A stretch of DNA of 64,000 nucleotides. Source: Candidatus Cloacimonadales bacterium. Lineage in GTDB: Bacteria; Cloacimonadota; Cloacimonadia; Cloacimonadales; JAFGVF01. Below the pieces are notes generated by a model. The model searched no databases, was not told the DNA's origin, and saw nothing but the letters and a program-made list of their open reading frames with translations. Numbering within the stretch: position 1 is the stretch's first letter; every line of letters starts with the position of its first letter. A program made the position numbers and the translations under genes. The stretch spans positions 1,472,001-1,536,000 of the forward strand of contig CAXXJV010000001.1 of NCBI GenBank assembly GCA_963663475.2. Reading direction: 5' to 3'. Of this stretch, positions 10,127 through 12,601 are shown in pieces.

Positions 10127-10208
<82 letters not shown>

Positions 10209-10227
10209 CTTATGTAGCGATTATGAT

Positions 10228-10303
10228 GGGCGTATAGCTCAGTTGGGAGAGCTCTTGCCTTACAAGCAAGCGGTCGGGGGTTCAAGTCCCTCTGCGCCCA
10301 CCA
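10228..10303 (+). tRNA. tRNA-Val(TAC)
   Basis: GGGCGTA/TGCGCCC acceptor stem, cttgc-ctTACaa-gcaag anticodon arm, encoded CCA. Confidence 0.97.
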
Positions 10304-10340
10304 TCATTTTCAAACCGATTAATAAAATTTCTTATACATC

Positions 10341-10416
10341 GGGCGTATAGCTCAGTTGGGAGAGCTCTTGCCTTACAAGCAAGCGGTCGGGGGTTCAAGT
10401 CCCTCTGCGCCCACCA
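10341..10416 (+). tRNA. tRNA-Val(TAC), identical second copy
   Basis: Identical to 10228-10303. Confidence 0.97.
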
Positions 10417-10427
10417 TCATCTTACCC

Positions 10428-10453
10428 AAGCCAACCTTGTTGGCTTTCTTTTT
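10428..10453 (+). terminator. Intrinsic terminator after the second tRNA-Val
   Basis: AAGCCAAC-ctt-GTTGGCTT followed by a T-rich tract. Confidence 0.7.
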
Positions 10454-10489
10454 AAGTACTTATTGCCATTAAGTACTTCATTTTTAGGA

Positions 10490-10568
<79 letters not shown>

Positions 10569-10833
10569 AAAATACCACTTATAACAATAAAAACTAAGCT
10601 TTTTTTTATCATTCTAAAAGTGACAGCAAGGTTGCCACTTTGCAAAAGCGTTTTTATCTCTCTATATTAAGGGTTATGGGATTCCAACCCGCTGTTACTC
10701 AGGTCAAAAAATAGACTTGAACTTAGCTGATACTCTCCATCTTAAGTTTGAATGCTAATCACAAATGTCTATTGCACTATCTGGGTTAAATGTATGATGA
10801 AATCAAGAAATTCTCATTATGTTTGCTTCATTT

Positions 10834-11050
10834 CAGGCTGTTGACAAACCCCTAAACATAAAATATGATAAAAAAACTTATTCTATATGCAAAAAAACAA
10901 GTGATTTGTAAAGTCGCTATATCTTTATCCAAACTCTTCACTGCAATGTATTTAAATACTATTTTGTTCGAGTTTGAGTAAATCAATTAGCGATCTCTTT
11001 TTGGAAAAAGAGACCAAAAACTCCAAGAAGCTGACTTTGTCAACACTCTG
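10834..11050. mobile_element. MITE family B: 217 bp, 15-bp TIRs, 5-bp target-site duplication
   Basis: Left end CAGGCTGTTGACAAA (10834-10848) and right end TTTGTCAACACTCTG (11036-11050) are 13/15 complementary. CATTT lies directly outside both ends (10829-10833, 11051-11055). No ORF. Confidence 0.85.
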
Positions 11051-11114
11051 CATTTAGATATTTCTAACATTTCTTACAAATAATAAATTGACGATTTGAC
11101 CAAGGAAATTATTT

Positions 11115-11263
11115 AAGTACTAAGTTTTGGAACTTCATACCAAAGTATGTAAAATGAGGATTCAAAACTCTCATGATGGATGAAGATTTAAAAACAGTTT
11201 CTCCTGTATGAGATGATTTACTTCCAGCCAAAGTATGCAATTAGGAAGTAATACACAAGTACT
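11115..11263 (+). ncRNA. Candidate structured cis-regulatory RNA in the amt 5' leader
   Basis: Two hairpins with an identical CAAAGTAT loop (11141-11148, 11229-11236), an intervening TCTCAT/ATGAGA stem and a possible closing AGTACT/AGTACT helix. Lies downstream of TTGACG (11088). Confidence 0.5.
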
Positions 11264-11337
11264 ATGAGATTATTGTTGCATTTATTTATTTATAAAGGTC
11301 TGAAATCCTGAGTGAGTAAATTAATGGAGGAACTGAA

Positions 11338-12540
11338 ATGTTCTCAGATGGCTCAACCGGATTTATGCTGGTTGCAACAAGTTTAGTTATGCTTATGACC
11401 CCTGGATTAGCCTTTTTTTATGGTGGTCTAGCTTCTAAACGAAATATTCTTGGTATAATGATTCAAAGTTTTGTATCATTAGGTGTAACAACAATTCTCT
11501 GGTATGCTTTCGGGTATTCCCTTTGTTTTAGTGGCTCAGGTCCCATTATTGGAAATTTCGATAAGAGTTTCCTCTTAGGAATTAATCTTCTAACTCCCTT
11601 TGGAGATGGTGCAATTCCTGAATTTGTTTTCTTTTCCTATCAAATGATGTTTGCTATTATTACCCCAGCCCTAATTACTGGTGCCTTTACTGGTAGGGTT
11701 TCCTTTAAAGCTTATCTTCTATTTTTGGTAGTTTGGCAAATTTTTGTTTATTACCCATTTGTCCATATGATTTGGGGTGGAGGAATCCTTGCTGAGTGGG
11801 GAGTTAGAGATTTCGCAGGAGGTATTGTAGTTCATGTTACAGCTGGTTTTGCAGCTCTTGCTTCTGTTATTTTTGTTGGTGAAAGGAAAAACAGAAACTC
11901 TAAACCTAACAGTATTCCCTTAGTTGCTATCGGAACAGGTCTTCTTTGGTTCGGCTGGTATGGTTTCAATGCTGGAAGTGAACTTAGGGTTGACCATATT
12001 ACAGCTCAAGCCTTTGTAAATACTGATATTGCTGCATCTTTTGCTACAATTACCTGGTTAATTATTGAGTGGACTCTTAAAAAGAAACCAAAATTTGTAG
12101 GACTTATGACAGGGGCTGTTGCTGGACTAGCAACAATAACTCCTGCTGCTGGTTTTGTGCCAGCTTGGGCTGCTGCAATAATTGGTATCTTAGCTGGTAT
12201 TGGTTGTTATATGGCAGTAGCATTAAAGAATAAACTCAAATGGGATGATGCTCTAGATGTTTGGGGTGTTCATGGTATGGGTGGATTTATTGGAACTGTA
12301 TTTCTTGGAGTTTTTGCAAGTTCAAGTCTTAATCCAGCTGGAGCTGATGGCTTATTAAAGGGGAACTCTACTTTCTTCTTCAAACAATTAATTACTGCAA
12401 GTGGAGCTGCTATTTATGCTTTCTTTTTTACTTATGCAATGCTGTGGATTATCAATAAGATAACAATTGTCAGAGTTTGCGAGGAACATGAAGGTCAAGG
12501 ATTAGATAGATCTCTCCACGATGAAGATGCATACGCATAG
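11338..12540 (+). CDS. amt: Ammonium transporter (Amt family)
   Basis: MTPGLAFFYGG, DFAGGIVVH, WFGWYGFNAGS and DDALDVWGVHG motifs; twin His retained; GGAGG RBS. Confidence 0.95.
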   Translation: MFSDGSTGFMLVATSLVMLMTPGLAFFYGGLASKRNILGIMIQSFVSLGVTTILWYAFGYSLCFSGSGPIIGNFDKSFLLGINLLTPFGDGAIPEFVFFSYQMMFAIITPALITGAFTGRVSFKAYLLFLVVWQIFVYYPFVHMIWGGGILAEWGVRDFAGGIVVHVTAGFAALASVIFVGERKNRNSKPNSIPLVAIGTGLLWFGWYGFNAGSELRVDHITAQAFVNTDIAASFATITWLIIEWTLKKKPKFVGLMTGAVAGLATITPAAGFVPAWAAAIIGILAGIGCYMAVALKNKLKWDDALDVWGVHGMGGFIGTVFLGVFASSSLNPAGADGLLKGNSTFFFKQLITASGAAIYAFFFTYAMLWIINKITIVRVCEEHEGQGLDRSLHDEDAYA

Positions 12541-12571: not shown

Positions 12572-12601
12572 AACAAGAGACTGGCATACCAGTCTCTTGT
12601 T
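12572..12601. terminator. Bidirectional terminator between convergent amt and oxidoreductase genes
   Basis: AACAAGAGACTGG-cata-CCAGTCTCTTGTT, 13-bp perfect stem with A-rich and T-rich flanks. Confidence 0.8.

Follow-up and report, generated by a model that had tools for sequence, protein, structure and literature searches.

The amt locus and its leader

The window (the whole stretch of Cloacimonadota DNA that was analysed, 64,000 nucleotides) carries at 11338-12540, on the plus strand, an ORF encoding an ammonium transporter of 400 aa (amt; Pfam PF00909, E = 7e-113). Four tRNA genes in the order Pro-Val-Val-Pro (10127-10567) lie upstream on the same strand, and a convergent flavodoxin-like gene lies downstream, beyond a hairpin at 12572-12601 whose terminator-like character indicates that amt is probably monocistronic. 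No terminator-like site was detected between 11088 and 11338. Based on the ORFs and Pfam domains of the window, no nitrogen gene adjoins amt, and neither a conserved neighbour gene of amt nor a candidate hairpin-binding protein was found. The features of the locus are as follows.

11088..11093, plus strand: predicted -35 box TTGACG, a TTGAC box at a conserved distance, in the predicted amt promoter
11110..11116, plus strand: putative weak -10 region (TATTTA or ATTTAA), read from the sequence 16-17 nt from the -35 box
11116..11121, plus strand: AGTACT, 5' strand of a proposed junction-closing stem, pairing with 11258-11263 in the fold of this genome
11123..11169, plus strand: hairpin 1, supported by folding, three compensatory pairs in the genus and a model score of 40.1 bits; lower stem AGUUUUGG-A-CUUCAU / AUGAGG-A-UUCAAAACU; top with 3' bulge AAA, inner pairs AC/GU and loop CAAAGUAU at 11141-11148
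about 11170..11212, plus strand: middle hairpin (CUCAUG...UAUGAG), supported by folding, genus-specific
11218..11251, plus strand: hairpin 3, the second copy of the module, supported by folding and a model score of 24.7 bits; lower stem UUACUUCC / GGAAGUAA; top with inner pairs GC/GC, loop CAAAGUAU at 11229-11236 and 3' bulge AAUUA
11258..11263, plus strand: AGTACT, 3' strand of the proposed closing stem, present in sequence and fold, not conserved
11264..11325, plus strand: rest of the leader, an AU-rich hairpin followed by the conserved UGAGUAAAUUAAU just 5' of the ribosome-binding site
11326..11330, plus strand: Shine-Dalgarno (SD) sequence GGAGG, from sequence and consensus fold
11338..12540, plus strand: amt (ORF; Pfam PF00909)
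12572..12601, either strand: 13-bp GC-rich hairpin 3' of amt, terminator-like on both strands

A preliminary description of this DNA had pointed to CCAAAGTATG occurring twice in the amt leader as the loop of twin hairpins. The two copies, at 11140-11149 and 11228-11237, are the sole exact matches in 64 kb on both strands. Each is preceded by ACTTC (11132-11136 and 11220-11224), and in the fold of 11100-11345 each tops a hairpin (11123-11169 and 11218-11251), in agreement with that description. When up to one mismatch was allowed, five matches to CCAAAGTATG were found in the window against 4.81 expected, so that the 10-mer alone is unremarkable; what stands out is that a single leader has two perfect copies at a spacing of 88 nt. 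The minimum free energy fold of 11100-11345 consists of three hairpins closed by AGUACU/AGUACU (z = -2.82), and 1 of 200 shuffled sequences folded equally well. The transcription start is predicted from the promoter-like sequence (16-18-nt spacer, weak -10 region) near 11122-11124, at the foot of hairpin 1.

The middle stem and the AGTACT repeats, proposed to close a four-way junction, are indeed present and supported by the fold of this genome, but the junction itself is not conserved in the genus. Only the near-identical genomes G000 (the own genome), G004 and G006 retain the closing stem; it is missing from the best folds of G002 and G003, and in the five-genome alignment five of its six pairs are broken in one or two of the five sequences. 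Its 5' strand also overlaps the predicted -10 and start region. With a start at 11122-11124 the 5' AGTACT (11116-11121) would lie outside the RNA, which is a second reason against the four-way junction, and these six bases are probably promoter DNA and not part of the transcript. Loop-loop kissing of the two copies was considered, as GUAY is nearly self-complementary, and was rejected, as the loops change independently in G003 (CAAAGUAC and CAAAGUUU) and G002 (CAAAGUAC and CACAGUUC). A leader peptide was also rejected: a 15-codon ORF starts at 11265 in the window, but G002 and G003 have no ATG there.

Within the genus, the leader is present in four of the six other genomes at 73-98% identity; it was not found in G005, and G001 has neither the leader nor a detectable amt. 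The five-way alignment showed that hairpin 1 has three pairs changed on both sides and many U-A to U-G changes. The A-U versus G-C change of the inner stem, first noticed between the two copies in the window, is one of these three pairs and a true covariation, since the inner stem of hairpin 1 reads AC/GU in G000, G004 and G006 and GC/GC in G002 and G003. U-A to U-G changes preserve the base of the middle stem in G002 and G003, conservation is lacking in its upper part, and the middle hairpin was not found in other lineages. Hairpin 3 is kept within the genus via U-A to U-G and A-U to G-U changes. Further downstream, 11264-11325 contains blocks invariant in the five genomes and folds into an AU-rich hairpin, with covariation absent. 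In the consensus fold GGAAC (11329-11333, which includes the last two SD bases) pairs with codons 2-3; these pairs are all invariant, so that comparative support for them is absent.

A covarying hairpin conserved directly upstream of amt

The functional unit of the leader is the single hairpin, not the pair, and the twin form is lineage-specific. The whole 160-nt element was tried as one unit (model R1) and discarded as such, as among 151 genomes of the phylum it matched only the five genomes of this genus; two extra weak matches (31.3 and 23.9 bits) both lie inside ORFs and are therefore attributed to chance. A 29-nt single-hairpin covariance model (R2) was built from seven hairpins and searched against the 151 phylum genomes, 12 genomes of the own family and 62 genomes of a second family, and amt loci were additionally searched with the speed filters off. 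In the conserved module, an 8-nt loop CAAAGUAY is closed by a 2-bp R-C/G-Y helix, below which come a 3' bulge AAW and a lower stem of variable sequence. It was detected upstream of amt in 18 genomes, of which 17 are Cloacimonadales (seven genera in three families) and one is a metagenome-assembled genome (MAG) labelled Sphaerochaetaceae. The leader in the window carries the lower stem, the AAW bulge, the R-C/G-Y helix and the CAAAGUAY loop directly before amt and belongs to the amt-leader hairpin family as provisionally defined by these features.

The module is doubled in three genera including the own genus and single in the rest (about 10-11 of the 18 genomes). The two forms are distributed as follows.

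Twin form: own genus (five genomes); G008, with a degenerate second copy (6-nt loop); G012 and G024, with second-copy loop CAAAGAAU
Single form: G007, G009, G011, G035, G095, G040, G139, G182 and G183; the Sphaerochaetaceae-labelled MAG (L010)

The module is specific to amt. In the window the model found only the two leader hairpins (40.1 bits at 11132-11160 and 24.7 bits at 11220-11249; nothing else at 15 bits or more), and these are also the only two R2 matches of the own genome. The leader is single-copy in that genome and the motif was found before amt only, which disposes of the concern that it might be a dispersed repeat. All strong R2 matches in the 151 phylum genomes precede amt, and all true module instances lie directly before it; the same motif was not found before glnA. 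Inspection of 21 weaker R2 matches (below 23 bits) placed 19 inside ORFs, and the candidates L107 (intergenic, 417 nt from an unrelated Reg_prop gene) and L121 (at a contig end) were rejected. Beyond the phylum, 80 metagenome amt loci of other phyla gave no R2 match at E values up to 5, and 76 genome amt loci of other phyla gave only one unconvincing match of 12.1 bits (E = 4.4). Among the matches listed for closer amt relatives in metagenomes, whose proteins show 63-73% identity, none carries the motif.

An amt gene is present in 30 of the 151 phylum genomes and the motif in 14 of those 30. The motif is missing from the other 16, which comprise three genomes of genus g21, G060 and a 12-member clade of 64-67% identity. 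The amt genes of genus g21 (L142-L144), a motif-less sister clade, have a short leader of another kind, with a TTGAC box, a small covarying hairpin and then AAAAG and GGGGTGAA before the start codon.

Analysis of 24 distinct hairpins from the 18 genomes, with the core held fixed, showed that 23 form the lower stem and that one degenerate second copy fails to do so; the mean z against shuffled flanks is -2.56. In the model-fitted alignment (21 matches in 19 distinct rows, one of them a false match and two partial, and leaning by construction toward the model), 91.1% of cells pair compared with 68.4% after shuffling, with none of 500 shuffles as high, and slid partners pair in 24-39% of cells. 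Compensatory changes occur at seven of the eight pairs in the same alignment, and the covarying inner pair is G-C in 15 and A-U in four of its 19 distinct hairpins (one false match included), unpaired in none. As the hairpins are related by descent, the shuffle statistics overstate their independence. The lower stems differ wholly between lineages (CUUCAU/AUGAGG, AACUAUGC/GCAUAGUU, CAGAGAUU/AAUCUCUG, AGCAAUUGC/GCAAUUGCU and CCACAA/UUGUGG). Conservation together with covariation was thus found in the homologous leaders. G-U pairs account for 39 of 318 pairs; the strand in the sense of amt folds better in 16 of the 24 hairpins, equally well in one and worse in seven, with a mean difference of -2.5 kcal/mol. 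The structure is accordingly assigned to RNA of the amt strand.

The position of the module relative to the promoter is conserved as well. A TTGAC box lies 46-51 nt upstream of the core of the first hairpin in 17 of the 18 genomes, and the contig of the 18th ends too early to include it. The module begins about 35-40 nt after this box, and the distance from TTGAC to the core grows with stem length. The fixed distance to TTGAC places the module probably at the 5' end of the mRNA and, in the window, favours transcription starting close to 11122-11124. A promoter on the opposite strand was considered: the complement of CCAAAGTA is TACTTTGG, which resembles the Bacteroidetes -7 box TAnnTTTG, but no TTTG stands at a consistent -33. 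On reading of the sequences it was rejected, as no minus-strand gene follows and the stems covary. A block between the -35 and -10 regions, GCAAG-YAAA(A)TT, is kept in G002/G003, G008 (genus g3) and G012/G024 (genus g4); the spacer in the window (11094-11110) reads CCAAGGAAATT, and G004/G006 read ACAAGTAAATT / CCAAGTAAATT. This block may be an additional control site at the DNA level.

The phylogeny of the transporter parallels the distribution of the module. When 54 Amt proteins were placed in a maximum-likelihood tree, a single branch separated the 18 proteins with the motif from all others (support 100/99; 200 of 200 bootstrap trees). Within this clade the order departs from the genome families, with genus g2 of the own family grouping with another family, and genus g4 of the third family grouping with g3 of the own family. 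The clade cuts across genome families, indicating that the gene and its leader moved together. The Sphaerochaetaceae-labelled MAG (G195, L010) nests in the motif clade on a long branch, and the motif is present in one of the 101 genomes of its family; an extra match in that family, G237 (26.8 bits), lies inside an ORF and was rejected. The Sphaerochaetaceae-labelled occurrence reflects either a transfer or a mis-binned contig. The same MAG has the amt promoter and hairpin of L010 once more, in near-identical form, on another contig (L240; contig C80, 1-420), where they are cut by the contig end; this second copy could stem from a second amt gene or from two strains in one bin.

Possible link to translation and modes of action

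A connection between the module and the ribosome-binding site is suggested by single-hairpin relatives. RNAalifold analysis of seven single-hairpin leaders from one subclade recovered the hairpin with nine of 12 pairs compensatory, together with a long-range helix in which a conserved AACUCCCY element pairs with the SD sequence. One pair of this anti-SD:SD helix changes with the SD sequence, being U-A in leaders with GGAGG and C-G in those with GGGGG. Purines dominate the 3' arm of the hairpin (GGGGAG, GAGAGUU), and judged by eye this arm can pair with the same CU-rich element. The modelled structures suggest that the single-hairpin leaders contain four segments that might pair either 1:2 and 3:4, or 2:3. 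In the own genus, a conserved anti-SD element was not found, the structure at the ribosome site shows no covariation, and a conserved pseudoknot partner was likewise not found; any such mechanism for the window would therefore be by analogy.

We infer that the module regulates amt and regard it as a candidate new cis-regulatory RNA. The preliminary description had proposed an undescribed riboswitch or protein-binding leader; this proposal gains support from the lack of an Rfam match, the covariation and the fact that the element is not a dispersed repeat. Tentatively, at somewhat short of even confidence, we favour the module as the site for a trans-acting factor that reports nitrogen status and sets amt expression after initiation of transcription. 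Such a factor, most likely a protein, would recognise the module by contacting loop and bulge jointly and would act through translation initiation, possibly also through mRNA stability. In the single-hairpin relatives, AACUCCCY would pair with the SD sequence and the 3' arm of the hairpin would compete for AACUCCCY, so that the ribosome site would stay blocked as long as the hairpin is held closed. Protein-binding hairpins are usually built in this way, with a conserved loop and a conserved bulge at a constant distance from each other and a stem whose sequence is free, and it is by this analogy that a protein factor would rank first and a small ligand second. A small ligand could, however, equally explain the conserved loop and bulge, and the movement of gene and leader from family to family is no less compatible with a self-contained sensor than with a host protein.

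A further possibility, on the unlikely side in our estimate, is a riboswitch, in which the hairpin itself binds a small molecule or ion reporting nitrogen status (glutamine, ammonium, 2-oxoglutarate or other), with the twins as tandem aptamers. Loop and bulge are kept over three families while every stem changes, the element is found before amt only, it moved with the gene across families, perhaps even into the Sphaerochaetaceae-labelled MAG, and no P-II was found in the 30 amt-bearing genomes, so that another nitrogen sensor would be needed. Very small and tandem riboswitches do exist (preQ1-I, guanidine-II, glycine, NAD+-I). The amt module, however, offers only about 14 conserved nucleotides in a plain hairpin, with no junction or pseudoknot partner found (loop complements were sought by eye) and no terminator-type expression platform, and decay of the second copy is seen in G008, where the loop has 6 nt, and in G012, where it reads CAAAGAAU. 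The specific form of this idea, a new and very small riboswitch class with ammonium or glutamine as natural candidates, in which the hairpin would sense nitrogen status directly and gate translation of the transporter in an order whose amt-bearing members showed no P-II, and tandem copies would sharpen the response, is judged unlikely. A passive stem-loop that senses nothing and merely protects amt mRNA from 5'-end-dependent decay, or fixes its translation level, is improbable. The hairpin does begin roughly at the predicted transcription start in 17 of the 18 genomes, and 5'-terminal hairpins stabilise bacterial mRNAs; a stabiliser, however, requires a stem only, whereas the loop bases C, A, A and G and the bulge AA are near-invariant over three families, the second copy lies 88-105 nt into the leader and cannot act as a 5' cap, and the element is restricted to one gene per genome.

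Reading the conserved word RCCAAAGTAYGYAAA, just 3' of the start, as a DNA site for a repressor or activator with incidental hairpins would explain why 15-16 bp are conserved at about +12 to +27 from a conserved promoter and why the window has two direct copies. The word is not palindromic, though, its second copy is found some 100 nt inside the transcribed region, its flanks are inverted repeats that change sequence yet keep pairing, which a DNA-binding protein would not need, and G-U pairs favour folding of the sense strand in 16 of the 24 hairpins. We therefore consider a DNA operator very improbable. An antitermination target of the ANTAR type, in which an ANTAR protein would bind two hairpins, is hardly credible, despite the twin hairpins before a nitrogen gene and the A1 and G4 of the six inner loop bases AAAGUA. 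The loop is 8 nt long, and in none of the 24 hairpins can its outermost bases, C and Y (U, C or A), make a standard pair; about 10-11 of the 18 genomes have a single hairpin, the copies in the window are spaced by 88 nt with another hairpin between them, and the leader has no terminator. A search for the ANTAR domain (PF03861) gave 0/1, 0/151 for the phylum genomes and 0/5 for other genomes, and equally 0/14 for the control genomes.

Comparison with known systems also sets the element apart. ANTAR targets are hexaloops with A1 and G4, closed by a standard pair, in two adjacent hairpins, the second of which competes with an intrinsic terminator. Those of the EutV, NasR and AmiR type resemble the module as small hairpins with conserved loop bases in leaders of nitrogen genes, in an A...G pattern within the loop, and in having two copies, as in this genus. 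The module differs by its 8-nt loop, the obligatory 2-bp upper helix and 3' AAW bulge, the sufficiency of one hairpin in most lineages, the 88-nt spacing and the lack of an overlapping terminator. Guanidine-II (mini-ykkC) RNAs have ACGR tetraloops that pair with each other; they are similar in that a single leader contains two small hairpins whose conserved loops are identical, whereas the amt loops have 8 nt and do not covary between copies, single copies are common and the gene context is ammonium and not guanidine. Loop (8-nt CAAAGUAY) and spacing (88 nt) fit neither of these two classes, as had been suspected from the window alone.

Glutamine riboswitches (RF01739, RF01704) are cis-acting RNAs, often in tandem, that sense nitrogen at the RNA level before amt and other nitrogen genes. 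The module is alike in being a cis-acting RNA before amt with tandem copies; unlike their three-stem junction with a pseudoknot it is a plain hairpin, and unlike them it is confined to Cloacimonadales (with the one Sphaerochaetaceae-labelled MAG besides) and to amt alone. The iron-responsive element with its IRP and the RAT hairpins of BglG/SacY provide a functional analogy, as 5' hairpins with a conserved loop and bulge on a free stem; their sequences, organisms and pathways are unrelated to those of the module.

No Rfam 15 family matched the element. At the gathering score the window contains the four tRNAs only, and 10600-11450 gave four chance-level matches to eukaryotic or viral families at E values up to 10, far below the gathering score. 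Five further leaders searched at E values up to 1 gave one match to a microRNA model, inside a coding region. Neither RF01739 (glnA RNA) nor RF01704 (Downstream-peptide) matched the window at E values up to 10 or the five leaders at E values up to 1. A literature search of full texts, with the supplementary motif lists of riboswitch-discovery papers outside its scope, returned no description of the element.

The search for P-II and sequences around the leader

In nearly all cases an ammonium transporter has a P-II protein (GlnK) as its partner and regulator. A search of the own genome (99.2% complete, 2 contigs) for P-II (PF00543) found none. Among the 151 phylum genomes it was detected in eight, all without amt, and in none of the 30 amt-bearing genomes; the control search recovered it in 13 of 14 reference genomes. 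An Amt without GlnK is unusual. For the control of ammonium uptake in the amt-bearing genomes, where no P-II was detected, a conserved RNA that covaries, occurs before amt only and travels with the gene is a concrete candidate. Binding of a metabolite or ion would make the module a new class of riboswitch for nitrogen; binding of a protein would point to an undescribed RNA-binding nitrogen regulator. The element is a simple hairpin known from 18 genomes only. Cloacimonadota abound in anaerobic digesters, in which the ammonium load is of practical importance.

One RNA-library run contained 6% of the sampled words and yielded four short contigs, which show 85-99% likeness and appear to derive from relatives. 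Of these, two (from 11312 and 11349) reach the end of the leader and the beginning of amt, and the other two lie in the upstream repeat and within amt, respectively; the hairpins are covered by none of the four.

Several features were observed upstream of the leader. The best sigma-70-like match of the region, TTGACA-17-TATGAT with 11 of 12 bases (10841-10869, plus strand), lies upstream of a repeat and points toward amt; this candidate promoter might yield an extended amt transcript or else transcribe the repeat. The repeat itself (10909-11065, about 140-160 bp), immediately 5' of the amt promoter, is dispersed, with 16 matches of 80-94% identity on both contigs of the own genome and a depth in two runs of 4-15 times that of the flanks; it could be MITE-like or regulatory. 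Elsewhere, the contig end upstream of the G139 amt promoter (L008, 1-219) consists of 31 tandem CCTAATC units and is telomere-like. The tRNA cluster at 10127-10567 is mirrored, Pro(tgg)-Val(tac)-Val(tac)-Pro(tgg), with two copies of each tRNA that have equal Rfam scores.
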